A stretch of DNA of 64,000 nt from NCBI GenBank assembly GCA_947627935.1, contig CANQXY010000004.1, forward strand, positions 1,536 to 65,535, given 5' to 3'. The DNA is from an uncultured Clostridia bacterium (GTDB taxonomy: Bacteria > Bacillota > Clostridia > TANB77 > CAG-508). Shown one piece after another: positions 3,804-47,443 of this stretch (positions within the stretch are counted from its first letter, which is position 1; each line of letters opens with the position of its first letter). The translations under genes and the position numbers were made by a program. The notes beneath the pieces are model-generated. The model had not been told where the DNA came from. It saw nothing but the letters and a program-made list of their open reading frames with translations, and ran no database searches.

Positions 3804-3843
3804 AAAAAATAACAGTTTGTTATAAATATAATAACAAACTGTT
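3804..3843 (-). terminator. Rho-independent terminator downstream of eno
   Basis: AACAGTTTGTTAT (3811-3823) pairs with ATAACAAACTGTT (3831-3843), followed by a U-tract on the minus strand. Confidence 0.7.
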
Positions 3844-3851
3844 TAATAAAT

Positions 3852-5126
3852 TTATATATTTAAAGAAATATTATTTTCAATATTTAATAATCTATTATAT
3901 TTAGCAACTCTATCTGTTCTACATGGTGCTCCTGTTTTTATCTGACCTGAATTTATTGCAACTGCTAAATCTGCAATTGTTGTATCTTCTGTTTCACCAG
4001 ATCTATGTGAAATTATTGTTTTATATCCATATTTTTTAGCCAAACTTATTGTTTCTAATGTTTCTGTTAAAGTTCCTATTTGATTTGGTTTTATTAAAAT
4101 TGCATTTGCAATTTTTTTAGTTATTCCTTTTTTTAATCTTTCTATATTAGTTACAAACAAATCATCTCCAACTAATTGAACTTTATCTCCTATTCTATTA
4201 GTTAATATTTCCCAAGATTCCCAATCTTCTTCTGCTAATCCATCTTCTACTGAAATAATTGGATATTTTTGAGTTAAATATACAATATATTCAATCATTT
4301 CTTCTTTAGTTTTAAATTGTTCTGTTTTCCAAAAATAATATCCTGTTTTTCCTATTTTTTTAGCTTCATCATACATTTCTGTACTTGCAATATCTAAACT
4401 TAATGCTATATCTTTTCCAGGTTCATATCCTGCTTTTTCTATAGCTTTTATTATATATTTTAACGCTTCTTCTTCATTTTCTAAATTTGGTGCAAAACCT
4501 CCTTCATCTCCTACTGCTACTGAATATCCATCTTCTTTTAATACTTTTTTTAATGAATGATATACCTCTACTCCTCTTTTTAATCTTTCTTTAAATGATA
4601 TATTTCCAATTGGCATAATCATAAATTCTTGAATATTTATATTATTATCAGAATGTTTTCCTCCATTTAATATGTTCATCATTGGAATTGGAAGTTCTAA
4701 TCCATTTATTCCACCTATATATTCATATAATTCTAATCCTAATGATTTAGCAGCAGCTTTTGCAACTGCTAAAGATACCCCTAAAATTGCATTTGCTCCT
4801 AAATTAGATTTATTAGGTGTATCATCTAATTTTAGTAATTCTCTATCTATATTTCTTTGATCATAAATATTAAAACCTTCTAATCTTTTTGATATTTTTT
4901 TATTTACGTTATCTACTGCCTTTAATACTCCTTTTCCTAAATATCTTTTTTCATCTTTATCTCTAAGTTCAACAGCTTCAAAACTTCCTGTTGACGCTCC
5001 AGATGGAACTAATGCTTTTCCATAATCTCCATTTTCTGTTATAACTTCTACTTGAACAGTAGGATTTCCTCTAGAATCTAATACTTCCATAGCTTCTATT
5101 TCTTTTATTAATAACTCTTTTTTCAT
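3852..5126 (-). CDS. eno: Enolase (phosphopyruvate hydratase)
   Basis: 424 aa with [25 protein letters not shown] and [17 protein letters not shown] signatures. Confidence 0.97.
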
Positions 5127-24397: not shown

Positions 24398-24428
24398 AAA
24401 AATCTGATTTTTTAAAATCAGATTTTTA
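24396..24428 (-). terminator. Hairpin terminator at the end of the filament operon
   Basis: AAATCTGATTTT/AAAATCAGATTT, overlapping the stop codon of the 24426 gene. Confidence 0.6.
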
Positions 24429-26036
24429 ATTATTTATATAATTATCATAATTTACTCTATACATACCATACCTTTCTCTTCCAAGCGCAGTATAATATGC
24501 TTTTGCTAGATCTGGTTTATCAGATAAATAATCATAAATACTTGTATAACTTTCAACTGAAGTTTGATTTACAATACTTGAATATGAACCTAATTCATCA
24601 TGTGGATAACAATAATAATTCTCATCATTAATACGATATAATTTTTTCTCAAAATCAACATTAAAATATCCTATTAAATCCTCTTTATCATTTAATCCTT
24701 TTTCATTTACTCTGCTATATTGATCTCCATTTACTATAAATATAGAATCTTCTGACACTACTTCTTGTGTTTTATCATTTGTTATAACTGCATATCCATT
24801 ATACATTTTTCCGCCTATTGCTAGTCCTTGTAAAAAGCTTATTAAAGATGGATGATGTATTATTCTATACCAATCTGTTTCTGATAAATTTGGCATCTGA
24901 AATTCATTATTGCTATTTGAATAATCATTAAAATTTGCTATTGCTATTGATAAATTCTTTTGTATTGCATATCTTATTACCGCAATTCTATGTTCATTAA
25001 AATTAGAATCTTCATCTTCTATGCTTTTACCATCTTGTTTTTTAAATATTAAAGTATTTCCATATAATCCATTAACTGATTTTCCATCACTATCCGTTAT
25101 AGATTCTCCATTTTCATTTTTAGCATCAGAATATTTAAGATCTCCTAAATTGTCTCTTACCCAATCAGTAAATTCTTTAGCTTTTTTATAGTAATTTATT
25201 GCACTATCATTATCATCATTAAAATAATCATTTCTATATTTTTCTGCTAGGTTATTAGATAAATACATTTTTTCACCATTAACAACAGAAAATATTTTTT
25301 CATCATTTTCTAAATAATACTTTACACCATTTAATTGAACATATGGATATATTGCAGTCTTTTTTGATTCATCATCATCAATTATAACTCTCTCTTGAAT
25401 ATTTTCTTTTTCAATTTCTACATTTCTGTATTTAACAATATCATTTGTTATGTCAATATTATCTAATAAATATCCAGATTTATTTACATAGTTTTCTCCA
25501 ACTTTTCCTTGAACTGTTATATAATTATCTAATGTATATGTAATTACTACATCTATATTTCCTTTTATGTATCTACAAGAATAGTATACATATGGTTTTA
25601 GTCCTTGTACAGTCTGTCCATTTTGATATGTACTATTATTATATAAAGTTATATCTTCTCCTAAATTATTAGTATATGGTGAATATATATAATATCCATC
25701 ATATAGTGTATATACTAGTGCTGGTACATAGTTTTTTATTGTATCAGCATTATATCCACTTAATCCAAAGCTATTTGCTACAGAATCAAAAAATACATTT
25801 GCTGACGCTTTTATATCTCTCATTTTTGATGATGCAACATCAGAAGATGTATTTGAAAGAGTATTTATTTGAAATGCCTTAACTGCATCATATGTTGAAT
25901 TAACTAATTTTGAATCATATGAAGTTTGTAAATTTAATGTTTTTATTTGATTTCTTGTATATGCAGATAATACTATAGATATTGGTAGCATTATAACTAT
26001 AAAAATTATTGCTAAATTCTGTAGTTTCATAAGCAA
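24426..26036 (-). CDS. Large filament-associated protein (536 aa) with an N-terminal hydrophobic anchor; possible minor subunit or tip protein
   Basis: N-terminus MLMKLQNLAIIFIVIMLPISIVLSAY. It is the last gene of the operon. No family recognised. Confidence 0.45.
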   Translation of the reverse strand: MLMKLQNLAIIFIVIMLPISIVLSAYTRNQIKTLNLQTSYDSKLVNSTYDAVKAFQINTLSNTSSDVASSKMRDIKASANVFFDSVANSFGLSGYNADTIKNYVPALVYTLYDGYYIYSPYTNNLGEDITLYNNSTYQNGQTVQGLKPYVYYSCRYIKGNIDVVITYTLDNYITVQGKVGENYVNKSGYLLDNIDITNDIVKYRNVEIEKENIQERVIIDDDESKKTAIYPYVQLNGVKYYLENDEKIFSVVNGEKMYLSNNLAEKYRNDYFNDDNDSAINYYKKAKEFTDWVRDNLGDLKYSDAKNENGESITDSDGKSVNGLYGNTLIFKKQDGKSIEDEDSNFNEHRIAVIRYAIQKNLSIAIANFNDYSNSNNEFQMPNLSETDWYRIIHHPSLISFLQGLAIGGKMYNGYAVITNDKTQEVVSEDSIFIVNGDQYSRVNEKGLNDKEDLIGYFNVDFEKKLYRINDENYYCYPHDELGSYSSIVNQTSVESYTSIYDYLSDKPDLAKAYYTALGRERYGMYRVNYDNYINN

Positions 26037-26062
26037 TCCTTTCCTTTGTACAAAAATATATT

Positions 26063-26093
26063 CAAATAGCTTGTAATTTAATTACAAGCTATT
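26063..26093 (-). terminator. Intra-operon stem-loop (partial terminator or processing site)
   Basis: AAATAGCTTGTAA (26063-26075) pairs with TTACAAGCTATTT (26081-26093). The U-tract is weak. Confidence 0.4.
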
Positions 26094-26112
26094 TCATTTA
26101 TAATTACTAAAA

Positions 26113-26634
26113 TTAATTTCCGTTTGTTGTTACCATTCCTGAAGCATCCGCTGTTATTTGATATGAATTATTTCCTGTTACTTTATATAGGAAATTTTTT
26201 AATTGTTGTGAAATTGTTGTATTTGTATTTTTTACACTTACTGAAATAGTATCTCCCTCTTTTAATGTATATACATGGTCTTTTTCTAGCACATCTAGAA
26301 TTTGAGTAGTATAAACATCATAAGATTGATTTTCACCTATTTTATCTTTTGAAACCTTATCTGATTTTTTAGCTATGTTTTCATCTAGTATTTTTGCTTT
26401 TAATTCTACATCATAAGCATTTCCTGTTGCTGAAATCTCCTCTATAAATTTGCCATAATTTTCTTCTGTTAATTTACCTGTTTTCTTTATGTTGTCAACA
26501 AATTCACTAGTTGCTGTTTGTACTGTTAATTGTGATACATCATCACTTGTATCTGATAGTGTCATTAGTGGGAAAACGAACATTAATATTGCTGCTAAAA
26601 TTATTGCAATTACTGTTATTGTAGAATTTTCCAT
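26113..26634 (-). CDS. Pilin-like protein (173 aa), N-terminus MENSTITVIAIILAAILMFVFPL
   Basis: Short polar leader plus one hydrophobic helix, in the filament operon. Confidence 0.45.
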   Translation of the reverse strand: MENSTITVIAIILAAILMFVFPLMTLSDTSDDVSQLTVQTATSEFVDNIKKTGKLTEENYGKFIEEISATGNAYDVELKAKILDENIAKKSDKVSKDKIGENQSYDVYTTQILDVLEKDHVYTLKEGDTISVSVKNTNTTISQQLKNFLYKVTGNNSYQITADASGMVTTNGN

Positions 26635-26682
26635 TTTATTACCTCCTTTTACTTAAGATGTAAAATCAACATCCTTTTATTT

Positions 26683-27279
26683 TTAAATTTCTGTATATGT
26701 TATAACTCTCTTTTCTGTTTTATTAATATTTGATATAGTTTCACTTTCTTGCTCTTCTAAATTATTAATATCTTCAATTTTGTCTTCTATATAATATATA
26801 CCGAGTTCTTCTTTGAATTTCTTCCCTTTTATTGTATCATAAAATACATTATTATGCAAGTTTTGTGCATTAGGAAAGTTGTTTTCAAAATTTCCATTTA
26901 AAATACCATTAATAAATAGAGTAGCTTTATCTTGATTTCCTATTGCTTCTTGCTCTAAATCTATCTCATTTGTTTCTTCAAAATTCCCAGATACTTTTCT
27001 TTTATATATAATTAATGGGTCCCCATTTTCTTTGTAAAATCTTACTACATAATTTTCTTTATATGCTCTATATAGTGTTGGAACTATTGTTTCTGCTCCA
27101 ACTACTCTTTTAGTATCTCCTATTGAAACATATGTATAATCATATGTTTTATCAGTTGATTCAATTATCATTTGTGATGTTTGTCTAGCTAATGAAAAAG
27201 ATGACATACCTATTGATAGTGCTAGTACAAATATTAATACAGCAAAAGCCATAATTAATGCTTCACTTGCATTTTCCAT
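26683..27279 (-). CDS. Pilin-like protein (198 aa), N-terminus MENASEALIMAFAVLIFVLALSIG
   Basis: Member of the MENAS(K/E)AL family. Confidence 0.45.
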   Translation of the reverse strand: MENASEALIMAFAVLIFVLALSIGMSSFSLARQTSQMIIESTDKTYDYTYVSIGDTKRVVGAETIVPTLYRAYKENYVVRFYKENGDPLIIYKRKVSGNFEETNEIDLEQEAIGNQDKATLFINGILNGNFENNFPNAQNLHNNVFYDTIKGKKFKEELGIYYIEDKIEDINNLEEQESETISNINKTEKRVITYTEI

Positions 27280-27323
27280 AATACATCATCCTTTCTAATT
27301 TTTATAAATTATTTTATGTATTG

Positions 27324-27755
27324 TTATTCTGTTATAGTTACACTACTTACTAAACCTGAAGTATAGTTGCATTTAACTTTATATACTTTAGATGTTTTTG
27401 CTCTAACACTTATTTGATCATTACTTCCGTTTTCGCCACCTAATGCTATTACCTCATCATTTACACCTTTAGCTGTAGTAGATAATAATGTTACTTTTCT
27501 ATTTGCTGCTATATTTAATTCATCTGAATTACTTGTTATTATTTGTTGTAAAAGTGCATTTACATTTGCTCCTCTAACAGACTCACCTTGATATTGTTCA
27601 AATTTAGCATTAAATGTTTCTTTTTCCATATCACTCATTGATGTACTATTAATTACTTCTGATGCCTGTCTCCATATAACAATTCCAAGTGAAATTATTA
27701 ATATTGATAATAATATAGCTCCTGCTATAATTAATGCTTTTGATGCGTTTTCCAT
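27324..27755 (-). CDS. Pilin-like protein, candidate major subunit, copy 2 (143 aa)
   Basis: N-terminus MENASKALIIAGAILLSILIISLG. The first 87 aa are identical to the 27775-28209 product, and the C-terminal third diverges. Confidence 0.5.
   Translation of the reverse strand: MENASKALIIAGAILLSILIISLGIVIWRQASEVINSTSMSDMEKETFNAKFEQYQGESVRGANVNALLQQIITSNSDELNIAANRKVTLLSTTAKGVNDEVIALGGENGSNDQISVRAKTSKVYKVKCNYTSGLVSSVTITE
27492..27755. repeat. Copy A of a tandem direct repeat of about 264 bp (5' part of the pilin-like gene)
   Basis: Aligned by eye to 27946-28209: 3 mismatches, all silent at the protein level. Confidence 0.9.
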
Positions 27756-27774
27756 AAAATCAATCCTTTCTATT

Positions 27775-28209
27775 TTATTTCTTTTCTATATTTTCTATTG
27801 TTACTTTATTTACTACACCAGCACTATAACCACATGTAACTTTATAAACTTTAGATGTTTGTGCTCTGTTAGCTATTGCATCTAGATTAGTACCTGATAA
27901 TGATATTGCTGTATTGCCAACTCCAGTAGCACCTCCATCTATTGATACTTTTCTATTTGCTGCTATATTTAATTCATCTGAATTACTTGTTATTATTTGT
28001 TGTAAAAGTGCATTTACATTTGCTCCTCTAACAGACTCACCTTGATATTGTTCAAATTTAGCATTAAATGTTTCTTTTTCCATATCACTCATTGATGTAC
28101 TATTAATTACTTCTGATGCTTGCCTCCATATAACAATTCCAAGTGAAATTATTAATATTGATAATAATATAGCTCCTGCTATAATCAATGCTTTTGATGC
28201 GTTTTCCAT
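27775..28209 (-). CDS. Pilin-like protein, candidate major subunit, copy 1 (144 aa)
   Basis: Same N-terminal 87 aa as copy 2. The segment after NRKV is variable, then the conserved TSKVYKV.C.Y..G.V..VTI follows. Confidence 0.5.
   Translation of the reverse strand: MENASKALIIAGAILLSILIISLGIVIWRQASEVINSTSMSDMEKETFNAKFEQYQGESVRGANVNALLQQIITSNSDELNIAANRKVSIDGGATGVGNTAISLSGTNLDAIANRAQTSKVYKVTCGYSAGVVNKVTIENIEKK
27946..28209. repeat. Copy B of the tandem direct repeat of about 264 bp
   Basis: See 27492-27755. Confidence 0.9.
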
Positions 28210-28275
28210 AAAATTTTCCTCCTTAATTTTAACTTTTGTTTATTTCACGATAGTTTCCTATCAAATTTAATAACA

Positions 28276-28707
28276 TTATTTAGATATTTGTGATATATGT
28301 ATCTTTTTTATTCTGTTAGTCTTCTTATGATATTCTATTTTATCACATTTAAACTTTATTGTGCTATAATTTTTTACGAAATTATCAATTCCGCCGTTAT
28401 AAATAGTCTCCATATCATATGTAGTATCATTATCTATAATATATATTTCTATTTTTATTGAATTTTCTTCATCTTCTACATATTTACCATCTTGATTTTT
28501 TTGTACATTGTAATTTATATTATTATCTATAGCTTTATTTATTAATGTTGCTATATCTATACCTTGTAGTTCTTTCTCATAATAGTATTCAAATTCTAGA
28601 TTATCTTTTTTTACTTTATTATATGATGATTTATAATTAATATAAACCATAGATATTGATACTACTATAATTAAAACTAATACTAAAAAAATTATTATTT
28701 TTTTCAT
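28276..28707 (-). CDS. Membrane-anchored paralog of the pilin-like family (143 aa) lacking the MENASKAL leader
   Basis: N-terminus MKKIIIFLVLVLIIVVSISMVY. It shares the family C-terminal motif KFKCDKIEYHKKTNRIKKIHI. Confidence 0.4.
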   Translation of the reverse strand: MKKIIIFLVLVLIIVVSISMVYINYKSSYNKVKKDNLEFEYYYEKELQGIDIATLINKAIDNNINYNVQKNQDGKYVEDEENSIKIEIYIIDNDTTYDMETIYNGGIDNFVKNYSTIKFKCDKIEYHKKTNRIKKIHISQISK

Positions 28708-28769
28708 TTTATTTCCTTATTAAATTTAACATATTAGATTTTATTTTTCAACTTAAAATATCATAAGTT

Positions 28770-29231
28770 TTAATTCTTTTTAAATATTACTTGATATACT
28801 CTTCCTGTTTTGGAACTAATCTTAACTTGTGAGCATTTATAAGTATTCTTCGTTACACTTGCTTGATTTTCTTCTAATTTTTCATTTTGTTTATCTAAAC
28901 TTAGTGTTTCGAAGTTGTTATCACTATCTAGTTTTACATTTATGTAAAAAGTACTATCAATTCCTGCAGATGATGTATCTAAATTATATTTATCATTATT
29001 TTCTTTTGCATAATTTGCAGCAGTTATTACATCATATATCGTTAAATCGCTTCTTCCTTCATATACTGTAAATTTTGAATTGAATTCTGAAAGTATTTTT
29101 TGTTCATTTTCTTTTTGTATATCTGCTGCCGAAGATCCAAATGTTGCAATTAAATATGCTGCTAATGATAGTATTAAAACTGCCATTAATACTCCTGCTG
29201 CCATAATTAAAGCTTTTGATGCATTTTCCAT
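28770..29231 (-). CDS. Pilin-like protein (153 aa), N-terminus MENASKALIMAAGVLMAVLILSLA
   Basis: Carries the family motifs FNSKFTVYEG and C-terminal YKCSQVKISSKTGRVYQVIF. Confidence 0.45.
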   Translation of the reverse strand: MENASKALIMAAGVLMAVLILSLAAYLIATFGSSAADIQKENEQKILSEFNSKFTVYEGRSDLTIYDVITAANYAKENNDKYNLDTSSAGIDSTFYINVKLDSDNNFETLSLDKQNEKLEENQASVTKNTYKCSQVKISSKTGRVYQVIFKKN

Positions 29232-29242
29232 AACACACCTCT

Positions 29243-29983
29243 TTATTCAAATGTTCCTGTAAATTCAAATTTCATTTTTATTATTCTACCTGTTGTTTTA
29301 TCATATTCTGTAGATGTACATCTAAAATGAGCTCTTTTAAGTTGTACATATTCATAATATTTATATATATCTTCCCTTATTGTACTTCCTTCTGCAATTT
29401 TATCAAAACTATTTATTTCATTTCTTGCTAATGATAATTTGTTATAACTATCTACTGCATTATCTTTTTTTTCTTGTATACTATCATTAGATATAAATAT
29501 TTTTGTAATTGATTTTGATAAATTTTCTAAACTGTTTTCACTATATTTACTAATAATTTCATCTAAATCTTTTTTTAATCCACTTCTAAAAGTACTATTG
29601 TTCGTTTTTTCTGTATATGTTTTTTTTGTTATCAATTTAGGATTTTCTCCATCTGCTGTAAATCCTTTTAAGTCTCCTAAATTTATTGTTACTTCTATAG
29701 GTTCATAACCTACATTTAATCCTTCATTTCCTATATTAGATTTTCTATCATTGTAATTTGCAACTTTGTTTAATAGTGAAAATAATTCTGTTCCTCTTAC
29801 ATCTTCTCTATTATATGCTTCATATTCTAGATTAAATTTAACTATTTCTTCTTCACTTGCTACACTACCTTCATTAGAATAAAATATTCCAATTCTATTA
29901 AACATCATTACTAATAGTGTAACAGTTAAAACAGCGATTAACATTCCTCCAGCCATTAACAAAGCTTTTGATGCATTTTCCAT
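29243..29983 (-). CDS. Pilin-like protein (246 aa), N-terminus MENASKALLMAGGMLIAVLTVTLL
   Basis: Carries the family motifs FNLEYEAYN..VRG and C-terminal FRCTSTEYDKTTGRIIKMKF. Confidence 0.45.
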   Translation of the reverse strand: MENASKALLMAGGMLIAVLTVTLLVMMFNRIGIFYSNEGSVASEEEIVKFNLEYEAYNREDVRGTELFSLLNKVANYNDRKSNIGNEGLNVGYEPIEVTINLGDLKGFTADGENPKLITKKTYTEKTNNSTFRSGLKKDLDEIISKYSENSLENLSKSITKIFISNDSIQEKKDNAVDSYNKLSLARNEINSFDKIAEGSTIREDIYKYYEYVQLKRAHFRCTSTEYDKTTGRIIKMKFEFTGTFE

Positions 29984-29999
29984 ATCAATTCTCCTATCT

Positions 30000-32078
30000 T
30001 TATACTGTTAAATTTTGAAATGTATTAGACATTGCAGTTAATCCTATAAATACTAATGGTATAATTAAATATCCTACAAATAGACATACCATTGGTGCAA
30101 ATCCTATAGCTTTTCCTATCATACCCTTTTTTTGTATTAATCTATCATTTGATTCTTTACGTTTAGCTTGATAATAATCTCTTTCTGAATCTAATTCATC
30201 AAATGCATCTCTAATTGGTATTTTTTCAACTGCTGCTTGTAAACTTTCAATTATACGTATAAATTGTGGATATGATACATCATTTTTTAATTCTTCTAAT
30301 GCTTCCCACGCTCCAGCTTCATAGTTGTTAACACATTTGCTAATAGGTTCTTTGAATATATTTGAATATCTTTCAAGCCATTCTAATATGATTTCAACAC
30401 TAACTCTTTCTATCCTCATAAGCATAAGTATAATTGTTTGGAACTGCATTACTTCATCTTCCATTTCAAGTTGTCTCATTTTTAATTGGAATTTTAATAT
30501 CCAAATTGGTCCCATATATGCAACTAATGCAAATACAATTGCTAATAATAATTCAAACCATTGCATATATTCACTATTTACTATTTTTAATTTTTTAAAC
30601 ACCCTTTCAGATGCTGTTTTTATTTCTTCATCAGTTGAATCTTGATAATATTTTGAATATTTCATTGCATGTTGTATATCTTCAACTGTAGTATCCATTT
30701 TTCCTTTAAACTTATCTAAAAATACATTGTCTTTTTCTGTTAATTCATTAGCATTTTTTAAATCTCTTTCAGACAGTCCTCCTATTATATCATAATCAGT
30801 AGTAGGTTCTTCATAAACATAATTTACTGCAATCCTATGTAATTGTGCAAAAACAACTATTGAAGTTAGTAATGTAACTATGGCTAATGCAATTCTATTT
30901 ACATATAACCATTCCATTTTTAGTTTTGATGCAGAATCTTTAAGTAAATTTTGTACTTTTCTATAATCTTTTGTACCTTTTTTTGGTATAAATAAATCTA
31001 CTATTTTCTTTATTATAGGTTTTCTGTATAATTTAGCCTGCCATGGATTTTCAGATCTTGTATCAATTGAAGTTGATCCATTATCTTTTAACTTTCTAGT
31101 AAGCATGTATGCTACAACTGTTATTATCATCATTAATATCTGTACAATCATTCCTGATTTGCCTTGGTAAAAACTTTGTGTAAAGCTGAAATTTGATATA
31201 GCCCAATTTTTTAATGGTTCTAATAATAATATTGGAACTATTGATATTACTGACAAACTTTGGAATACATAGTCTAATTTATCTCTTTTTAAAATTTCAA
31301 GTTGCATTTCTTGTGTTATATTATTAACATTTTTTAAATATAATGAAGCTCCATCTATTTTTCTATCTCCAAATTCTTTTGTTAAATATGATATTCCTGC
31401 AAATTCTTTTAAGAAACTATTTGGTGCAACATCATAATATTTTTCAAGTTCTGTTTCTGGTTCATTTGATATTAAAACTTCGTATATCTTTTCACCTTGT
31501 CTTGATACATCCATTTCGTCGTCTTGAGATACTTGATATATAGCCTCTTCTACCATATTAAATTCATGATATGCATGTCTTATTTCTGAAAAAAATTCTA
31601 TTTGTTGTTTCAATAAATTATTATCTTTTTTATCTACTAATCCATCTATATATGTATCTATCATAAATAATTCAAATATCAAGATAATTCCCATTAATAA
31701 CATATTTGAATGTGTTATTACTATAGTAAAAATTACTAGTGGTGTTAATATTAATAAAGTTTTTGTTAATATTTTAGCTGCATCTCTTCTTGTTATATAT
31801 TCATCATCTACATTTATTATTTCCAATCTTCTTCTAAGTTTTAATACATATCTTTTTAAAATTGGTATTTTTAAATATGTTAAATATAATTTTTGAAATA
31901 GAACTTCTGAAGAATATTTATTTGATTTTGTTCCTTGTTGTAATTGAGCTATTTGTTTATATTCAGAGTCTTGCATTTTCTTTCTTAATAAATAATATGC
32001 AATGATTATTATAGCAAATAGTCCTACTGTTCCACCCATTATATAAAATAAAATTTCATTTGATATCAATAATAACAC
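30000..32078 (-). CDS. Polytopic membrane platform protein, apparently a fused TadB/TadC (two T2SS-F-like halves)
   Basis: 692 aa with clusters of TM helices separated by cytoplasmic helical regions. The C-terminal region resembles the T2SSF domain. The true start may be the TTG at 32069 (GGAGG RBS) rather than the GTG at 32078. Confidence 0.5.
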   Translation of the reverse strand: MLLLISNEILFYIMGGTVGLFAIIIIAYYLLRKKMQDSEYKQIAQLQQGTKSNKYSSEVLFQKLYLTYLKIPILKRYVLKLRRRLEIINVDDEYITRRDAAKILTKTLLILTPLVIFTIVITHSNMLLMGIILIFELFMIDTYIDGLVDKKDNNLLKQQIEFFSEIRHAYHEFNMVEEAIYQVSQDDEMDVSRQGEKIYEVLISNEPETELEKYYDVAPNSFLKEFAGISYLTKEFGDRKIDGASLYLKNVNNITQEMQLEILKRDKLDYVFQSLSVISIVPILLLEPLKNWAISNFSFTQSFYQGKSGMIVQILMMIITVVAYMLTRKLKDNGSTSIDTRSENPWQAKLYRKPIIKKIVDLFIPKKGTKDYRKVQNLLKDSASKLKMEWLYVNRIALAIVTLLTSIVVFAQLHRIAVNYVYEEPTTDYDIIGGLSERDLKNANELTEKDNVFLDKFKGKMDTTVEDIQHAMKYSKYYQDSTDEEIKTASERVFKKLKIVNSEYMQWFELLLAIVFALVAYMGPIWILKFQLKMRQLEMEDEVMQFQTIILMLMRIERVSVEIILEWLERYSNIFKEPISKCVNNYEAGAWEALEELKNDVSYPQFIRIIESLQAAVEKIPIRDAFDELDSERDYYQAKRKESNDRLIQKKGMIGKAIGFAPMVCLFVGYLIIPLVFIGLTAMSNTFQNLTV

Positions 32079-32095
32079 CTCCTTATGTGTAAAAT

Positions 32096-34042
32096 TTAAA
32101 CTGTCTTAGGTTTTCTTCCTCTTCTCTTTTTTTCTTCTGCTCCTACTGTAACTGTTTCGTTTGATTTTCCCCAATATTTTTGAATAAATTTGTCAAATTC
32201 TTCTGCATCACTTTCATCCATATTGTTTCTCATTTCTCTAATATTTTTATCTGATATTTTATTTGTAATTACATATTCTCCATTTACATATTCTAAAATA
32301 TTTCTATATGTATATAATTGTCTTTCTGTTGTTTTTGTAAAATAATGTGTTGCATTATCAAAGAATTTATCAAATTTACCTTCTAAAGTTTTCTCTTTTC
32401 TATGATCAAAAGTATATTCATTTTTTTGTTCTACTGGAATACATTCTGTTACTCTTTCTATGTATCTTCTTCCTCTAAAGTCTTTAACTAAATGTATATC
32501 AAAATTTAATACTTGTACAACTTGTTCTTCTGCTGTTCTTTCATCTTTAAACACTCCTGCTCTTAACATTGAGTTACGAAGAGCTGTTACTAAATCTGGG
32601 AATGTTTTAGCATGGTGAGTAAATAATGTGAACTTTGATGCAACTTGTGCTGATTGTATCATCCAAGATGCAACAGGGTCTGTTGCAACCTCACCTATAA
32701 TGTTAACAGAACCATCTGTTTTCTTTTGAACGTCCAAACAATCTTGTCCTGAAACTGTTTCTGTTTCACGCATTGATAAAATATTTCTTGTTGGATATAT
32801 TTTTCTTAAGTGTAACTCAAATGCTGTTTCTGTAATACGAAGGTTCATTGTTTCATAAATGTTTTCTATCATTGCCATAAGCATTGTTGTTTTACCACAA
32901 CCTTGCTCACCAGTAAGTGATATAATTCTTGCACCTTTTACTAAGAATTTTAGTAAATTTATTGCATCTTCTTTTCCAGGGAATAATACTATTTGCTCTA
33001 ATGTAGCACGTTTAACGTCAAATTTTCTTACGAAAAATGCCCATGTTTCTGACATACTTGGTCTTACAACAACAACACGTGATCCATCTTTCATTTCATT
33101 TATTTTATAACCATTTGTATCTGATAATTGTCCTGGATTGTTATATTTATATATATTTTGACATACTCTCTTAAGTTCTGCTTCTGTTCCAAATGATAAA
33201 AATGCTAAACGTATTGATTTACCTTGGAACATTATCCAAATACTATCACATGCTCTAGGTACTTTATGTTCTGTTATTTGTTCTAAATAATCTCCATCTG
33301 TTTGTGACACTTGGCTTAAGAATGATTCTGGAAGTCCAGATACACCACCAGAAACACCATCTATGTTCATATCTCTTATTTCATCTATTGCACTATATCC
33401 TTTATAGTGTTGATATATTCTTTGTACTAATATACTTAATTTATCTTGAAATGATAATACTATATTTTCAGTTTCATATATCTCGTTTATTTCATCTTCT
33501 GTTATAACATATGATGGTTTTGTTTCACCTTCGACATATTTTAATGCTGCTAAATTATATTTTTTTATCATTTCTGTTAATGCTTCATAACCAAACTCTT
33601 TTTTATACATATATATTAATATGTCAAATTTATCTTGAGCAGTTAAAAGTGATGGAATATCAAATGGTATTGATTTTGAAATATTTACTTCATCTACTCC
33701 ATATTCTTGTTCTAATAAATCTGATATAAGTTCTTTAACATATTTTTTGTCATTTACATCTCCATATGTACAACCTTTTAATGCTTTCTTTAGTTCATAT
33801 TTTTTATTTTTTCTTCTTTTTAATTCTTCTTCTGAAAGTCCTATATCATATAAATTAACTTTTGTTATTTCATCTAATCTTTTTTTAACAAATTGTGTCA
33901 TCATTTGTAATGTATAAGTTTGATCATCTACTTCTACTGTTTCTTCTACAGGTGCTTCATTTTTATTTTTTATATATCTCATTACTGCAAATATAGCTAA
34001 ACATATAATTATTAACATTAATATAATATTAGTTATAGTCAT
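32096..34042 (-). CDS. CpaF/TadA-VirB11 family secretion ATPase with an unusual N-terminal TM anchor (648 aa)
   Basis: Walker A GEQGCGKTT; DGSRVVVVRP..AFFVRKF (CpaF-like); Walker B region GSVNIIGEV; His box FTHHAKT. The N-terminus MTITNIILMLIIICLAIFAV is hydrophobic. Confidence 0.7.
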   Translation of the reverse strand: MTITNIILMLIIICLAIFAVMRYIKNKNEAPVEETVEVDDQTYTLQMMTQFVKKRLDEITKVNLYDIGLSEEELKRRKNKKYELKKALKGCTYGDVNDKKYVKELISDLLEQEYGVDEVNISKSIPFDIPSLLTAQDKFDILIYMYKKEFGYEALTEMIKKYNLAALKYVEGETKPSYVITEDEINEIYETENIVLSFQDKLSILVQRIYQHYKGYSAIDEIRDMNIDGVSGGVSGLPESFLSQVSQTDGDYLEQITEHKVPRACDSIWIMFQGKSIRLAFLSFGTEAELKRVCQNIYKYNNPGQLSDTNGYKINEMKDGSRVVVVRPSMSETWAFFVRKFDVKRATLEQIVLFPGKEDAINLLKFLVKGARIISLTGEQGCGKTTMLMAMIENIYETMNLRITETAFELHLRKIYPTRNILSMRETETVSGQDCLDVQKKTDGSVNIIGEVATDPVASWMIQSAQVASKFTLFTHHAKTFPDLVTALRNSMLRAGVFKDERTAEEQVVQVLNFDIHLVKDFRGRRYIERVTECIPVEQKNEYTFDHRKEKTLEGKFDKFFDNATHYFTKTTERQLYTYRNILEYVNGEYVITNKISDKNIREMRNNMDESDAEEFDKFIQKYWGKSNETVTVGAEEKKRRGRKPKTV

Positions 34043-34056
34043 TTATTTTAGCCTCC

Positions 34057-34893
34057 TTATCTTCTTTGTTGTAATATTTGTAACCTATATAAAATGTTTT
34101 CAGATAATCTATTTACTTCACTTATAAAAAATGAATTTCTTTCATCTTCTATTTTTCTAAATTTTAAAAACAAATCTGCTACTTTTCCTTCCTCTGCTGC
34201 TTCAAAATATTGAGTGTTATATGGTAAAGTTAGAACTTGATTTCTTTCTCCTAAATATCTTGTTATATTTTTTGAAGTATATTTTGAAAATTTATCATAT
34301 CTTCCTATCAATAATAATACTTTAGGATCTTTAAATAATGGATTTTTTGTTTTTATATCAAGGAAATTGTTTATTGCTCTTAATCTTTGTGATAATGTTG
34401 CAACTACCAAATCTGACATTTTTATTATTTCATCTTGCAATGGTATTGGCATTACAGTTGCTAAATCTACAAATACAAAATCATAATATGTGTTTGCTAA
34501 TTCTATAATTTGTATATAACTTTCTGCTATTTGTTTATATTCACTTTCTTGTCCTTCAAATCCTAATAACAATTCTAATCTATCTTTGAATATTATTTTT
34601 GTATAATCTGTTATTAAATTTGCTGTAAATTTATTACTTCTTACAATTCTATCTAATCCTTCTATTCCACTTTGTATAGACGAATTAGCATTTTGTCCAA
34701 ATAATCCTATATTTTTTGTTGTTTTTTTATTTTGTTCAAAAAAACAATTTTCTATAGTTTCATCATTAAGACTTGTAGATATTAATAAAATCTTTTTATT
34801 ATGTTCTATTGCCATATGTGTTGCCACAGCGACAGCAGATAGTGTCTTTCCTACATGTTCTTTATTATTACCCCAAAATGTAACAATTGCCAT
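34057..34893 (-). CDS. ParA/MinD-family ATPase (TadZ/CpaE-like)
   Basis: 278 aa with a deviant Walker A, FWGNNKEHVGKT, and the Walker B-like YDFVFVDLA. Confidence 0.55.
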   Translation of the reverse strand: MAIVTFWGNNKEHVGKTLSAVAVATHMAIEHNKKILLISTSLNDETIENCFFEQNKKTTKNIGLFGQNANSSIQSGIEGLDRIVRSNKFTANLITDYTKIIFKDRLELLLGFEGQESEYKQIAESYIQIIELANTYYDFVFVDLATVMPIPLQDEIIKMSDLVVATLSQRLRAINNFLDIKTKNPLFKDPKVLLLIGRYDKFSKYTSKNITRYLGERNQVLTLPYNTQYFEAAEEGKVADLFLKFRKIEDERNSFFISEVNRLSENILYRLQILQQRR

Positions 34894-34897
34894 AGTC

Positions 34898-35593
34898 TTA
34901 TGCTCCTTTTTCTATAGTTTTTATAGCCTTTCTAATATCTGTATTTTTAACTTCTTTATAAATGCCTTCTACAATATAAGATAAATTTTCTTTATATGCA
35001 GAAGTTAATTTTTTGAATTTGATTTTTTCAACTCTCTGATTTTCTATAATAGCACTAAAATCTTCCATTGTTATAGTAAAATAAATTTTATATTCATTCC
35101 AACTTATATTGCAATCTTTAGATAGAAAATCTAAATATTGTTCTTCTTCTGGTAACATATTTTTTGAAAACAATATTTTTGTAACCTTGATTTGTTCTTC
35201 AAGTTCACTTAATACTTCTAATCCTTTTTTTAAATCATAAACATCAAAAGATGTAACAAAATAATTTATATCTGAATTTTCTAATTCAAATCTTTTAAAC
35301 ATATCATATGAATCAGTATCTACAAACACTATATCATATGATTGATTTAAGTCATCAATTCCTAAGTATTGTCTTAAATGTTCAAAGCTACTAAATCCTA
35401 TAGCTACATCTATATTTTCAAATTCTGTTACATAGTTTGCAGTTGGAGTTATAGCTGGCACTACATATTTGGCTTTTTGCTTTTGTGTACAATCTACTAT
35501 TAGAATTCTTTTACCTAAAACTGTTAAAATCTTTGCTACATATAACATAAGGTCAATTTTATCATAAGCTCCAATAAATCCTATTTTTTGCAT
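34898..35593 (-). CDS. Degenerate ParA/MinD-like protein lacking a P-loop
   Basis: 231 aa. It has the same fold signature (IGFIGAYDKIDL.., YDIVFVDTDS), but the GKT/GKS of Walker A is absent. Confidence 0.45.
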   Translation of the reverse strand: MQKIGFIGAYDKIDLMLYVAKILTVLGKRILIVDCTQKQKAKYVVPAITPTANYVTEFENIDVAIGFSSFEHLRQYLGIDDLNQSYDIVFVDTDSYDMFKRFELENSDINYFVTSFDVYDLKKGLEVLSELEEQIKVTKILFSKNMLPEEEQYLDFLSKDCNISWNEYKIYFTITMEDFSAIIENQRVEKIKFKKLTSAYKENLSYIVEGIYKEVKNTDIRKAIKTIEKGA

Positions 35594-35645
35594 AGTATTC
35601 TTCCTTTCTCCTCAGTATTAAGGGCATATAAATATGCCCTTAATA

Positions 35646-36551
35646 TTAATATCCTGCTAATGTATCTAAATATTGTTTTCTTGATTCTTGTGAATTTGCT
35701 GTACTATTTGATATTCCTTCTTCTACGTTTGTTTGAGCTTGTTCTGATCCGGCAATTGCAGGAGTTAAATGTTCATTTCTTAGCTGTGATAAATTATTTT
35801 GGCCATATCTTGCATTTAATGCATTCATAGCTTCTTTTAATATGTTTGGATCACTTTTTAATAATGCAACTACTTCTGCACTTACAGGATATGTAGGTGT
35901 AGCAGCTTTTTGCATTCCTGGGTCTGTATATTTTGTAGCATATATTTTTGATCCATTAATTTTAAATGCATCATAAATTGCATTTGAAATTGATAATATT
36001 TCATCTTCACTTAAATTAATTCTTATTGTGTCTGATGAAAGAGATCCTCCTAAATCTGGTATTTCAACTTTTTTCTTAGATACAACTATATAATTTTGTC
36101 CTGATGGAAGCATTAATCTAATATCAACATAATCTCCATCTTCTAAGTCTATTGGTAAGACTATCATATTATATTCTTCTATTCTTGTATCATCATTTAT
36201 TTTATTATCTGACTCAGTTATTAAATCTGATGTTATTATAGTATTTTTATTCATATCAACTTTTGCAATTACATTTTCTTCTCCAGTTAAGCTAATTGCA
36301 TTAGCTGGTACTGCATCAGAAGGAAGTGTTTTTGCAGTAATTGTACTTAAATCTACTGTTTCTCCAGATTTAACATCTTTATTTAATACATATACTGTTT
36401 TACTAGCCGCTTTTTCTTCTTGTTCTTTCTTTTTAATATTCATTAATTGTAAAAATAATAACGCTATTATTATACCTGTTATAACTAACGTTAATAACAT
36501 TCCTAACAAAAATGAATTTCTTGATTTTCTTTGCATTGGATTTGTTGCCAT
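35646..36551 (-). CDS. CpaB/RcpC-like pilus assembly protein
   Basis: 301 aa with an N-terminal TM, a SAF-like segment (LNKDVKSGETV) and a GDYVDIRL motif, as in CpaB. Strong AAGGGAGG RBS. Confidence 0.55.
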   Translation of the reverse strand: MATNPMQRKSRNSFLLGMLLTLVITGIIIALLFLQLMNIKKKEQEEKAASKTVYVLNKDVKSGETVDLSTITAKTLPSDAVPANAISLTGEENVIAKVDMNKNTIITSDLITESDNKINDDTRIEEYNMIVLPIDLEDGDYVDIRLMLPSGQNYIVVSKKKVEIPDLGGSLSSDTIRINLSEDEILSISNAIYDAFKINGSKIYATKYTDPGMQKAATPTYPVSAEVVALLKSDPNILKEAMNALNARYGQNNLSQLRNEHLTPAIAGSEQAQTNVEEGISNSTANSQESRKQYLDTLAGY

Positions 36552-36675
36552 GACAAATTCCTCCCTTAATTTATAATTTATATTATTTTTTTACAAAATA
36601 TTCATCTATTTTATTTTAACTTAAATCAAGTTGAAAATCAATAATTTATAGCGTTTGTAACCTAAAATTAATATC

Positions 36676-36697
36676 ATTGTAATATTATTGTAATATT
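36676..36697. repeat. Tandem 11-mer ATTGTAATATT x2 in the divergent intergenic region between the filament operon and the SASP gene
   Basis: Read directly at 36676-36686 and 36687-36697. Confidence 0.9.
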
Positions 36698-36822
36698 ATT
36701 TTTTTATTCCTTATTTTTTGAAAAATTTACCTGTTTATTTTAAAAAAAATTGCTAATTCTATTATTAGAAAAAGCAAAAGTTTTTTCTATAAATGTTATA
36801 TATAGCAGGAGGTGAAAAAACA

Positions 36823-37020
36823 ATGGCAAACACAAGTAACAGAAAATTAGTTCCAGAAGCTATGTCTGCATTAGACAAATTCAAATATGAAGTTGCTTCA
36901 GAAGTTGGTGTTAACTTAAAAGACGGATATAATGGTGACATTTCAGCTAAAGACGCTGGTAAAATAGGTGGACAAATGGTTAAAAAAATGATCGAACAAG
37001 CTGAAAGAAACATGAAATAG
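36823..37020 (+). CDS. Small acid-soluble spore protein, alpha/beta type
   Basis: 65 aa: MANTSNRKLVPEAMSALDKFKYEVASEVGV..GGQMVKKMIEQAE. AGGAGGTG RBS. Confidence 0.9.
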   Translation: MANTSNRKLVPEAMSALDKFKYEVASEVGVNLKDGYNGDISAKDAGKIGGQMVKKMIEQAERNMK

Positions 37021-37142
37021 TTATTACTATTTTAAAATTTGAATTCTATTTATAGACAGGAGGTTAAGTTTTGTTTTTATGAATACATAAAGGCAGGATT
37101 TGATTTCCTGCCTTTTCTTATTTTTAATTATGCTTCTGGTTC
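36908..37142 (+). repeat. Direct repeat copy 1 (235 bp): SASP 3' part, intergenic terminator and the last 15 nt of hpf
   Basis: Aligned base by base to 38576-38810 (offset 1668): 233/235 identical. Confidence 0.95.
37089..37117. terminator. Bidirectional terminator (duplicated at 38757-38785)
   Basis: AAAGGCAGGA-TTTGAT-TCCTGCCTTT with flanking A/T runs. Confidence 0.75.
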
Positions 37143-37313: not shown

Positions 37314-38009
37314 CTAAATTTCTTGTACTATAAAGTTATTATAGTTTTGTAATTCTTTTTTTATTTCTTCCTTATTTTTTCCATTCCAATAATTATAGTT
37401 ATATATAACCTTATTATCTATTTTTATTACATTTGTTATTGTAGGTATTTGTTCATTTTCTATCTGTTTTAATTCTTCATACTTCTCTGTTGCTACTTTT
37501 TCAGTATATCCACCTACACAATATCTAGCACCTATACAAACATCATTTTCATCAAATGACATTATTATAGTAGCTTCTAATTTATCATCATTACTTTCTA
37601 TCAATAAATTTGTAACCTTAGAAATTGTTTTTCTATTTTCTTGTGTTATCCATTCTTTAAATGCTTCAAAATATTCAGGATTCCCATTTTCATCAACAGC
37701 AACTCCACCTATTGAAAGAAAAAAACTAATTATTAATGTTATTAATAAAATTGAAATTGATAAAACTATTCCTATTATTATTACATTTCTATGTTTTATT
37801 TTTTTTAGATAATCAATTTTTTTTAATTCATCTATTCTATCTAATACAATTTCTTTTCCCATATCTTTTAAAATATTTGTACACTCTTCACATTCTTTAA
37901 TATGATTTTCAATGTATTTGTTTGTTTCTTCACTTGTCAAGCCTTCTATATAGTTTGGTAATAAATCTTGTATTAATTTACACTCGTTGTTTTTTTTCAT
38001 TCTCATCAA
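37314..38009 (-). CDS. Anti-sigma factor (zf-HC2 type, single TM)
   Basis: 231 aa. The N-terminus CKLIQDLLPNYIEG..HIKECEEC fits zf-HC2. It has a TM at about residue 80 and overlaps the sigma gene's stop codon. Confidence 0.75.
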   Translation of the reverse strand: MMRMKKNNECKLIQDLLPNYIEGLTSEETNKYIENHIKECEECTNILKDMGKEIVLDRIDELKKIDYLKKIKHRNVIIIGIVLSISILLITLIISFFLSIGGVAVDENGNPEYFEAFKEWITQENRKTISKVTNLLIESNDDKLEATIIMSFDENDVCIGARYCVGGYTEKVATEKYEELKQIENEQIPTITNVIKIDNKVIYNYNYWNGKNKEEIKKELQNYNNFIVQEI

Positions 38010-38469
38010 CCTCCTTCATTTTTTGTTTTCCTCTATAAAAAGAAACTCTTGCCAAATTTTCACTTATTCCTAGGATTTCGCCTATTTCTTTAAATGTAAA
38101 TTCTCCTGTGATTTTTAAATAAAATATTTCTTGTGTTCTTGTATCCAATTTTTTTATTTTATTAATTAAATCTAATTTATCCGTGCAATTATTTTCTAAA
38201 CTTTCATAAGATACAATTTGTATCTCATCTAAATTTACTATGTTTATATTATGTGTTTTCTTTAATTCTTTAAGCCATAAATTTTTTGCAATTTGGCATA
38301 ACCAAACATATAATTTACACTCTCCTCTATATTGTTTGATATGTTTAAATGCTTGATAAAAAGTTTCTTGAGTTAAATCTTCTGACAAGGCATCATTATG
38401 AGTTAAGCAGAACAAATATTTATAAACCTGTTTTGAATATTCTTTATATATTTCTTCAATATTCTGCAT
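37978..38469 (-). CDS. RNA polymerase sigma-70 factor, ECF subfamily
   Basis: 163 aa with region 2 (DLTQETFYQAF) and the region 4 HTH (FTFKEIGEILGISENLARVSFYRGKQKM). Confidence 0.85.
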   Translation of the reverse strand: MQNIEEIYKEYSKQVYKYLFCLTHNDALSEDLTQETFYQAFKHIKQYRGECKLYVWLCQIAKNLWLKELKKTHNINIVNLDEIQIVSYESLENNCTDKLDLINKIKKLDTRTQEIFYLKITGEFTFKEIGEILGISENLARVSFYRGKQKMKEVDENEKKQRV

Positions 38470-38575
38470 TAATCAAAATCCTCCTTTCTTTTCTTATGTT
38501 ATAAGAGTATAAAAAAATTAAATTCGTTACAAATATTTTTATTATATAAAAAATAGTTGGTTAAATTAAAAGTGA

Positions 38576-38688
38576 GTGTTAACTTAAAAGACGGATATAA
38601 TGGTGACATTTCAGCTAAAGACGCTGGTAAAATAGGTGGACAAATGGTTAAAAAAATGATCGAACAAGCTGAAAGAAACATGAAATAG
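38576..38688 (+). pseudogene. 3' fragment of the SASP gene (no start, no promoter)
   Basis: Identical to 36908-37020. It begins mid-codon at the repeat boundary. Confidence 0.85.
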
Positions 38689-38810
38689 TTATTACTATTT
38701 TAAAATTTGAATTCTATTTATAGACAGGAAGTTAAGTTTTGTTTTTATGAATATATAAAGGCAGGATTTGATTTCCTGCCTTTTCTTATTTTTAATTATG
38801 CTTCTGGTTC
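38576..38810 (+). repeat. Direct repeat copy 2 (235 bp)
   Basis: See 36908-37142. Confidence 0.95.
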
Positions 38811-46415: not shown

Positions 46416-46729
46416 CTTCCTACTCCTTATATTTTTTTAATAAATTTTATGATTATTTTCTTATATTATTACTTCTAATTTTAATTCACTAAAAACAAAT
46501 TTACATTTTATATAGTAATTATTTTATTTATTAATATAAATAGTTCTATTTTGTAATAAAATTCATACTTATCGTCTTATTTTTTTGTAAAATAATTCCA
46601 ATTTTATATTGACAACTTAAATATTTTGCATTATATTGATAATATTGCTGGAAAAATAAGGTAATTTTTTATACTTTGTCGAAACCTGTTTTTCTAGTAT
46701 AATTTATGTTTTTAAAGGAAGGTTATAAT

Positions 46730-47443
46730 ATGTTAAATTTTATAATTTGTGATGATAATCAAAATATTTTAGATAAATTATCTAAACTTTTAGAAGACAT
46801 TTTTAATAAGAATAATTTTGATGCTAAAATTTCTTTTAAATCAACTGATGTACAAAGTGTTTATACTTTTGTTAATTCAAATAAAGTTGATGTATTAATT
46901 TTAGATATAAACTTAAAATCAAAAATGTCTGGTTTAGAATTGGCACAAAAAGTAAGAGAATTTAATAAAGATTGTTATATTATATTTACTACTGGTCATT
47001 TAGAATATGCAATGATGGCATACAAATTCAAAACTTTTGATTATTTAGCAAAGCCTATTACATATGAAAGATTAGAAGATACAATAATAAGATTATTTGA
47101 TGATATTCATGGTCTTCCTAAAAAATATATAAAAATTGATAATAAAAATACTTTAATTGATGAGGCTGAAATTCAATATATAAAAAGAGATGGTATGAAA
47201 TTAATATATCATACTGAAAGTCGTGATTATGAAGCTTATAGTTCTTTTAATAAAATACAAATGAACTTACCTAATAATTTTGTAAGATGCCATAAATCAT
47301 ATGTTGCAAATATAAACAACATTAAAAACTTTGAACCAACAACTAATACAATTTACTTTAATGATGATGTATCTTGTGATATTGGTCCAAAATATAAATC
47401 TAGCTTTATGGAGGTAATGAATAATTATGGAGATTTTAAATAA
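46730..47443 (+). CDS. LytTR-family response regulator (AgrA-like)
   Basis: An N-terminal receiver domain (ICDDN.., LILDINL) plus a C-terminal LytTR domain. The ATG at 46730 follows AAAGGAAGG. Confidence 0.85.
   Translation: MLNFIICDDNQNILDKLSKLLEDIFNKNNFDAKISFKSTDVQSVYTFVNSNKVDVLILDINLKSKMSGLELAQKVREFNKDCYIIFTTGHLEYAMMAYKFKTFDYLAKPITYERLEDTIIRLFDDIHGLPKKYIKIDNKNTLIDEAEIQYIKRDGMKLIYHTESRDYEAYSSFNKIQMNLPNNFVRCHKSYVANINNIKNFEPTTNTIYFNDDVSCDIGPKYKSSFMEVMNNYGDFK

Follow-up and report, generated by a model that had tools for sequence, protein, structure and literature searches.

Our analysis points to a divergent Tad-type (type IVc-like) filament machine in an uncultured Clostridia bacterium (TANB77; CAG-508), from which a stretch of 64,000 nucleotides (nt), referred to here as the window, was analyzed (assembly GCA_947627935.1, contig CANQXY010000004.1, positions 1,536-65,535). 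The machine would be encoded by an operon of 13 co-directional open reading frames (ORFs) at positions 24426-36551 of the window, on the minus strand, and would assemble pilin-like proteins of a new family, marked by a very short and highly conserved N-terminus, into a filament on the surface of this Gram-positive gut bacterium. We put the probability of that reading, taken as a whole, at roughly 65%. The locus is already known: it is the TANB77 Tad-like pilus cluster described by Kim et al. in 2024 (Nat Commun 15:10726; PMC11680825). What is new here is that a nine-gene core of the same system also occurs on large plasmids, in part conjugative, of Bacillales and of Clostridia.

The layout of the locus can be read directly from the sequence. 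Gaps between the 13 ORFs measure 4-76 nt, and most of the ORFs are preceded by a purine-rich run that resembles a Shine-Dalgarno sequence. In the order of transcription, a CpaB-like gene (g1) is followed by two ParA-like genes (g2 and g3), an ATPase (g4), a platform protein (g5), seven small proteins of 143-246 amino acids (aa) with one N-terminal hydrophobic helix each (g6-g12), and a larger anchored protein (g13). This succession of CpaB, TadZ, TadA, TadB/C, and small proteins is colinear with Tad loci. An earlier reading of the window, made without database searches (the sequence-only reading), had likewise described 13 tightly spaced genes in one direction, and every motif that it quoted was located, including GDYVDIRL in g1, GNNKEHVGKT in g3, and GEQGCGKTT, DGSRVVVVRP..FVRKF, and FTHHAKT in g4. 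The two ParA-like genes that it named are both there, although in reversed order, with the P-loop-less g2 preceding g3, which carries the Walker A motif. The genes are as follows.

g1, 35646..36551, minus strand: 301 aa, CpaB/RcpC-like membrane protein with a SAF domain and a single N-terminal helix
g2, 34898..35593, minus strand: 231 aa, degenerate ParA-like protein without a P-loop
g3, 34057..34893, minus strand: 278 aa, TadZ/CpaE-like, resembles ParA/MinD and has a degenerate form of the deviant Walker A (KEHVGKT)
g4, 32096..34042, minus strand: 648 aa, CpaF/TadA-family secretion ATPase with a transmembrane helix at residues 1-26
g5, 30000..32078, minus strand: 692 aa (689 aa in public gene calls), about eight transmembrane helices, putative platform protein fusing a TadB-like part with one in the TadC position
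g6, 29243..29983, minus strand: 246 aa, pilin-like paralog, starts MENASKAL, one N-terminal helix, no family match
g7, 28770..29231, minus strand: 153 aa, pilin-like paralog, starts MENASKAL
g8, 28276..28707, minus strand: 143 aa, paralog of g7 without the MENAS N-terminus, starts MKKIII
g9, 27775..28209, minus strand: 144 aa, pilin-like, candidate major subunit, AAGGAGG upstream
g10, 27324..27755, minus strand: 143 aa, copy of g9 in tandem, differing from it in the C-terminal third
g11, 26683..27279, minus strand: 198 aa, pilin-like paralog, starts MENASEAL
g12, 26113..26634, minus strand: 173 aa, one N-terminal helix, starts MENSTI, separate family present in all plasmid modules
g13, 24426..26036, minus strand: 536 aa, N-terminally anchored, homologous to "pilin 938" of Kim et al., possibly a minor pilin or tip protein

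The assignment to Tad/CpaF-type machinery, already proposed in the sequence-only reading, is borne out by profile matches of g1, g3, g4, and g5 to Tad proteins. The ATPase g4 passed the Pfam T2SSE model narrowly, by two bits (26.9 bits against a cut-off of 24.9), and g4 thus supplies the TadA/CpaF ATPase of a Tad system. When a profile of 22 g4 homologs was searched against 177,635 PDB sequences, the sole match was CpaF of Caulobacter crescentus (E 1.8e-10, residues 269-543), with the Walker A, Walker B, and His box of g4 aligned to those of CpaF. The N-domain of g4, about 265 aa long, was without a family match. For the remaining genes we compared family hidden Markov models (HMMs) with reference Tad loci from Thermoanaerobacterium pMU3262, Alkaliphilus pB6464, and Clostridium botulinum pCLJ, together with a Rhizobium Tad locus. 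Although g1 scored below the cut-offs of both TIGR03177 pilus_cpaB (E 7.4e-8, 31.9 bits, cut-off 71) and SAF (18.6 bits, cut-off 21), its family HMM matched the annotated RcpC/CpaB of pMU3262 (22.2 bits, E 1.4e-5). The Pfam ParA-type matches of g3 (AAA_31 and CbiA) all fell below cut-off; its family HMM picked up, in two canonical Firmicutes Tad loci, the AAA ATPase that occupies the TadZ position (33.1 and 30.2 bits), so that by family HMM the locus contains a TadZ/CpaE component. No Walker A was present in the sequence of g2, and its profile similarity to g3 was weak (hhalign probability 53%). Structural homology to CpaB and TadZ has been given for the published counterparts of g1 and g2, proteins 927 and 928 (PMC11680825).

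The platform protein called for a less direct route. A family profile scan of the window proteins yielded no significant Pfam or NCBIfam match for g2, g5, or g6-g13; the Pfam T2SSF model matched neither g5 nor any of 72 diverse members of its family at E values up to 1, and profiles of 20 or 114 sequences found no PDB sequence match for g5. Nevertheless, an HMM of g5 residues 95-335 matched the first platform protein in all three Firmicutes Tad loci (26.7-28.9 bits), and an HMM of residues 495-692 matched the second platform protein of the same loci (31.0-36.6 bits). Each half-HMM passed over the other platform class, and the best unrelated score among 4,321 background ORFs was 11.3 bits. Two of the three first-platform proteins pass Pfam T2SSF themselves, and one connects onward to Rhizobium TadB. 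Because its halves match the first and the second Firmicutes platform protein, respectively, we read g5 as a fusion of two platform proteins by transitive homology. The TadB-TadC fusion of the sequence-only reading therefore stands on the half-HMM matches to both platform proteins and not on the direct T2SSF test. Fold comparison by Kim et al. also makes the homolog a fused TadB/TadC protein (PMC11680825). Those authors assign the first half to TadC and the second to TadB, whereas our profile searches indicate the reverse. An internal duplication in g5 was considered and rejected, as hhalign found no match between its two halves.

Most of the small proteins look, from their sequences, like candidate filament subunits. 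Profile comparisons with hhalign identify g6, g7, g8, g9/g10, and g11 as paralogs (probability 95-99.9%): g6 aligns with g7 over residues 1-84 at 99.9%, g8 with g7 over 124 columns at 98.8%, and g11 with g6, g7, and g9 over the N-terminal 32-82 residues at 97%. These five or six paralogs combine an invariant N-terminus with variable heads. Among 120 g7 homologs, for example, Met1-Glu2-Asn3 and Ala7-Leu8 are invariant, and in g9 the mean identity between species is 77% for residues 1-30, compared with 30% for the remainder. The start MENAS(K/E)AL, which the sequence-only reading gave for the subunit candidates, holds for the other paralogs and not for g8 (MKKIII) or g12 (MENSTI). Kim et al. predict a signal peptide for protein 934, the equivalent of g8 (PMC11680825). 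An AlphaFold2 model of g7 from 69 sequences (mean predicted local distance difference test [pLDDT] score, 89.2) has a continuous helix at residues 2-55 followed by a small alpha/beta head, and thus the predicted general shape of a type IV pilin.

Variation at the g9 slot adds to this picture. The first 264 nt of g9 and g10 are identical at 261 positions and their first 88 aa are the same, beyond which the two diverge completely; copy number at the slot differs among species, with two copies in the window. The pair (27324-28209) recalls the variation of pilin heads through duplication or gene conversion. Conserved N-termini, variable heads, and a duplicated g9 slot are together the pattern expected of surface-exposed filament subunits, as judged from sequence. 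By hhalign, g12 and g13 belong to families separate from g6-g11. In the structural analysis of Kim et al., the N-terminal quarter of the 621-aa protein 938, the homolog of g13, is TadE/PilV-like (PMC11680825).

Conservation across the clade indicates that the locus is not a chance arrangement, because the order g1-g13 is kept in 80/80 fetched species-level genomes. Our g4 query had at least 446 relatives in species-representative genomes, and the figures for gene order and identity refer to the best 80, all of them from uncultured Clostridia of the gut, among them Clostridium sp. CAG:245 and CAG:780. Across these 80 species, median identity to the window was 82% for the ATPase, 70% for the platform, 75% for MurC, 64% for SpoIVB, and 33-45% for the pilin-like proteins; the ATPase is thus more conserved than MurC, and also more than RecO. 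No additional gene was present within the locus in the 80 related genomes. A phage origin was rejected; PHROGs were uninformative, and a tblastn search of 50,697 phage records gave one weak match, to the ATPase.

The locus also corresponds to the published cluster. Kim et al. combined eggNOG annotation, topology prediction, and AlphaFold/Foldseek comparison to describe a stretch of 10-14 genes, conserved in 122/129 TANB77 species, as a Tad-like pilus; in CAG-245 sp000435175 the genes are numbered 927-938 and annotated as CpaB, TadZ, CpaE, TadA/CpaF, a fused TadB/TadC, six pilin-like proteins, and a 621-aa protein (PMC11680825). The cluster entered the literature because the abundance of TANB77 tracks the response to cancer immune-checkpoint therapy and because of its last protein; they report that recombinant "pilin 938" activates dendritic cells via TLR4 and improves the anti-PD-1 response in mice (PMC11680825). 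In the CAG:245 locus that we recovered (L042), ORF lengths of 357/230/279/639/692/164/177/156/143/236/177 aa compare with published lengths of 358/231/280/640/693/165/170/143/146/237/178 aa (PMC11680825), so that gene order and lengths match their table almost exactly. The window proteins are 33-83% identical to those of L042 and their genes are colinear, which places the window locus within the published cluster. The two are the same locus with the same assignments, and the window represents a different species within the clade, with two copies in the g9 slot. The suggestion of an undescribed variant of the type IV filament superfamily is accordingly not supported. Kim et al. make no mention of Flp, of a peptidase, of the N-terminal motif, or of homologs outside the gut (PMC11680825).

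It is outside TANB77 that our searches extend the published account. The g5 family comprises 1,233 representative clusters at 50% identity, and we found a colinear nine-gene module consisting of a SAF protein, two ParA-like proteins, the ATPase, the fused platform, and four small proteins. The module contains homologs of g1-g5, g9, g12, and g13, with their order kept. It is carried by Thermobacillus composti pTHECO01, Lysinibacillus sphaericus pBsph, Butyrivibrio proteoclasticus pCY186, Clostridium argentinense pRSJ17_1 (where there are three small proteins), and the chromosome of Paenibacillus agilis. Module ATPases are 36-58% identical to g4 over their full length, and full-length homologs also occur on plasmids of several Paenibacillus species, Cohnella, C. 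botulinum, and Clostridium beijerinckii. Of the pilin-like paralogs, g9 alone gave a BLAST match to the plasmid modules, where its homolog directly follows the platform gene. Likewise, g12 matches the small protein in third place in the modules of Thermobacillus, Paenibacillus, and Lysinibacillus (BLASTP E 7e-16 to 3e-7), and g13 is homologous to the last gene of the plasmid modules (323-342 aa).

The surroundings of these modules vary. In pTHECO01 a coupling protein is encoded 8 kb from the module, which adjoins a Tcp-type conjugation region, and pBsph has been reported as conjugative (PMC13239906). Downstream of the module on pTHECO01, pBsph, and the C. argentinense plasmid, three of the four plasmid loci examined, come a cell-wall-binding protein of the SLH or repeat type and then a very large protein of about 1,000 aa or more; the latter is a DUF5704 protein on two plasmids, and GGDEF and HD-domain genes come next on pTHECO01 and the C. 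argentinense plasmid. These downstream genes hint at wall-anchored partners and at control by cyclic di-GMP. The chromosomal module of P. agilis adjoins thiamine genes. Directly upstream of it (positions 3595-5118 of locus L081) is a gene for a 507-aa Ser/Thr protein kinase, the C-terminal half of which resembles a degenerate ParA-like domain and suggests phosphorylation-based control of the module in that species. Proteins of the plasmid modules are annotated solely as hypothetical, and our literature search found no publication on these modules; pXO16, pursued as a lead to a plasmid-borne Tad-like transfer system, yielded nothing relevant. The plasmid homologs qualify the description of the proteins as essentially exclusive to TANB77 (PMC11680825). 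Furthermore, cultured and genetically tractable carriers (L. sphaericus pBsph, Paenibacillus polymyxa, T. composti, and B. proteoclasticus) allow filament formation, the major subunit, and its processing to be tested without culturing TANB77.

Taken together, the gene content suggests how the machine might work. The membrane-anchored CpaF-family ATPase g4 would dock on the fused platform g5, with the CpaB-like g1 and the ParA/TadZ-like g2 and g3 serving to scaffold or position the complex. The machine would then pull pilin-like proteins out of the membrane and polymerize them, via their long hydrophobic N-terminal helices, into a surface filament. Its major subunit would likely be g9/g10, with the paralogs g6, g7, g8, and g11 as minor subunits, and g12 and g13 may act as accessory or tip proteins. 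We infer the steps from gene content to filament, and the assembled structure is most likely a surface pilus. Independent work with AlphaFold and Foldseek reached the same assignment (PMC11680825).

Several observations weigh against a Tad-type pilus. The study of Kim et al. contains no microscopy, and no filament was observed (PMC11680825). The link between g5 and T2SSF is transitive rather than direct, and an AlphaFold2 model of g5 from a shallow alignment of 20 sequences was poor (pLDDT 50.6). A Foldseek search with the g7 model found nothing below E 0.1 in the PDB or in a viral library; the g7 profile had no match among PDB sequences, and 69 members of its family matched no Pfam pilin family. 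No Flp, TadE, DUF4320, or other pilin family HMM matched g6-g13, which also match none of the Flp-sized genes in the canonical Firmicutes loci, nor their DUF4320 gene, and contain no G/XXXXEY, G-F-x-x-x-E, or conserved class III cleavage motif. No Flp pilin and no recognizable TadE/TadF pseudopilin, both expected of a Tad system, was found among g6-g13, just as the sequence-only reading had noted. Its third absentee, the prepilin peptidase, is missing as well, with no A24 enzyme in the locus or among the five multi-helix ORFs of the window (g5, FeoB, an AgrC-like kinase, a Na/Ca exchanger, and a 215-aa protein). The absence of a peptidase from the locus is in itself unremarkable, because the three canonical Firmicutes Tad loci also have none annotated within 6-7 kb of the ATPase. 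The 215-aa protein was considered as a hidden peptidase and rejected as not A24-like; its YGDGFAAIFGK motif resembles what we take to be that of a polyprenol or phytol kinase.

A surface pilus is not the only structure such a machine could build. It could instead drive a short pseudopilus or piston across the thick cell wall, one that exports or displays other proteins in the manner of type II secretion or the Com pseudopilus rather than forming a long adhesive pilus. The many paralogous subunits per locus and the large anchored last protein would suit that function, as would the cell-wall-binding (SLH or repeat) proteins and the giant DUF5704-type protein that follow the plasmid modules, which are possible cargo or partners. 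No retraction ATPase is encoded in the locus, but Tad systems use one bifunctional ATPase (CpaF), which makes the absence of a second uninformative, and the fast-diverging, tandemly duplicated heads of g9 suggest exposure to the environment. We consider a pseudopilus unlikely. Still less probable is a mating-pair or aggregation pilus that aids conjugative transfer, similar to the thin type IVb pilus of IncI plasmids, of which the TANB77 copy would be a domesticated descendant. The nine-gene core does reside on large Firmicutes plasmids, one of them with a coupling protein and Tcp-type region near the module and another, pBsph, reported as conjugative (PMC13239906), and peptidoglycan hydrolases and a ssDNA-binding protein flank the module on pCY186 and the C. 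argentinense plasmid. Yet most carrier plasmids are typed as non-mobilizable, the chromosomal copy of P. agilis has thiamine genes for neighbors, and in 80 TANB77 species the locus sits in a fixed place amid housekeeping genes, with flanks free of transfer genes. Somewhat easier to entertain, though still tentative and with the odds against it, is the idea that the MENASKAL proteins represent a filament lineage that is assembled without prepilin-peptidase cleavage (leaderless pilins) and was spread in Firmicutes by large conjugative plasmids, possibly as a Gram-positive mating or aggregation pilus, with TANB77 having fixed and expanded a chromosomal copy.

Two further ideas start from remarks in the sequence-only reading, and we regard both as highly improbable. 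One holds that the subunits carry archaeal-type class III signal peptides, cut after K-A by a FlaK/PibD/EppA-like peptidase encoded elsewhere, and stem from a separate archaeal transfer. Residues 6-11 of five TANB77 paralogs, KAL[IL][IM]A, do fit a pattern that we take to be FlaFind-like, Ala7-Leu8 is invariant in the 120 g7 homologs, and one homolog is labelled "UPF0333 family" by JGI. However, the K-A-L/I arrangement that fits the TANB77 paralogs recurs in 1/6 plasmid homologs and, in a permissive version applied to the first 40 residues, in 8% of arbitrary ORFs. In the plasmid modules, the pilin-like protein that comes first starts MSTNASKAL, MNNAQSALKV (Paenibacillus, where the Lys is missing), or MESPVVKAI, and because these starts vary the Lys before Ala is not conserved. 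In addition, the Pfam class III signal family had no match to the small proteins, g4 matched bacterial CpaF and no archaeal ATPase in the PDB, and the machinery is nearest to Firmicutes Tad loci. The archaeal resemblance of the subunits is thus weak. The other idea ties expression of the locus to sporulation, its product being a structure on the spore surface or associated with the forespore. Its placement was described correctly: profile matches identify SpoIVB downstream (PF05580, E 1.5e-85) and a divergent alpha/beta small acid-soluble spore protein (SASP) gene upstream (E 7e-30), the order SASP-locus-spoIVB is kept in most of the 80 related genomes, and all known carriers belong to groups that include spore-formers. 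The proposed functional link fared less well. The SASP gene is divergently transcribed, a promoter of the sporulation type could not be assigned in such AT-rich sequence, and sporulation genes adjoin the system only within TANB77 and in no other carrier examined. Butyrivibrio, a module carrier, is to our knowledge not known to sporulate, which also counts against this idea. Because the Paenibacillus, Thermobacillus, Lysinibacillus, Butyrivibrio, and Clostridium modules lie elsewhere, in unrelated contexts, the SASP/spoIVB neighborhood reads as inherited synteny and not as functional linkage.

Returning to the pilus locus, two noncoding elements may bear on its regulation.

g1/SASP divergent intergenic region, 36552..36792, no strand: presumed promoter region with short ATAATATTACA-type tandem repeats
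Palindrome, 26064..26094, minus strand: perfect 14-bp stem (AAATAGCTTGTAATT...AATTACAAGCTATTT) in the 76-nt gap between g12 and g13, terminator-like in the scan

The ATAATATTACA-like repeats, at 36660-36705, lie about 110-150 nt 5' of g1 and may be a regulator-binding site. A sigma-70 promoter scan was uninformative in this AT-rich DNA, with 113 sites against 121 expected by chance from shuffled sequence. The palindrome may be an attenuator or terminator, perhaps setting the level of the large last protein. Beyond the SASP gene, a 260-nt direct repeat (36883-37142 and 38551-38810; 95% identical, 1,668 nt apart) copies the SASP 3' end and its terminator and brackets a pair of genes for an extracytoplasmic function (ECF) sigma factor and a zf-HC2 anti-sigma factor (37314-38469). 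The pair looks like an insertion, because the related loci examined lack it and have hpf as the next recognized gene beyond the SASP gene. Elsewhere in the window, a LytTR response regulator followed by a six-helix GHKL histidine kinase (46706-48770) forms an Agr-type quorum-sensing pair that is unrelated to the locus. The FeoB ORF (13991-15883) starts inside the G-domain, with FeoB_N positions 63-156 of the Pfam model corresponding to residues 3-96; its true start may lie further upstream, or the gene may be truncated or frameshifted.

Comparison with known systems helps to place the TANB77 locus. With archaeal pili of the Epd/Aap type, which have class III signal peptides, its subunits share an N-terminus that is short and polar, a hydrophobic helix after it, and, in the TANB77 paralogs, K-A-L/I. 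In contrast to those pili, the pattern is not conserved family-wide, no family HMM matches, no peptidase of the archaeal type turned up, and the ATPase and platform are nearest to bacterial Tad. The resemblance to Tad/Flp systems (type IVc), as represented by Cpa of C. crescentus and Tad of Aggregatibacter and Bifidobacterium breve, is broader and extends to a single, CpaF-family ATPase, CpaB-like and TadZ-like proteins, two platform domains, and a colinear gene order. Yet there are clear departures from the Tad/Flp plan. G/XXXXEY, recognizable TadE/TadF, and TadV are all missing, along with a secretin, the last as expected of a monoderm. Furthermore, the TANB77 platform is fused, the ATPase is membrane-anchored and has a long novel N-domain, and the subunits are 143-246 aa long with globular heads, whereas Flp proteins measure 50-80 aa.

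For g1, g3, and each half of g5, the closest relatives that could be detected are in the Tad loci of Firmicutes plasmids (pMU3262, pB6464, and pCLJ). These differ from the TANB77 locus in having separate platform genes, small genes of 55-75 aa, and ATPases of 410-490 aa that are 24-28% identical to g4; pMU3262 adds a DUF4320 protein. The nine-gene plasmid modules, finally, have three or four small proteins compared with eight in TANB77, and the platform is fused in both.

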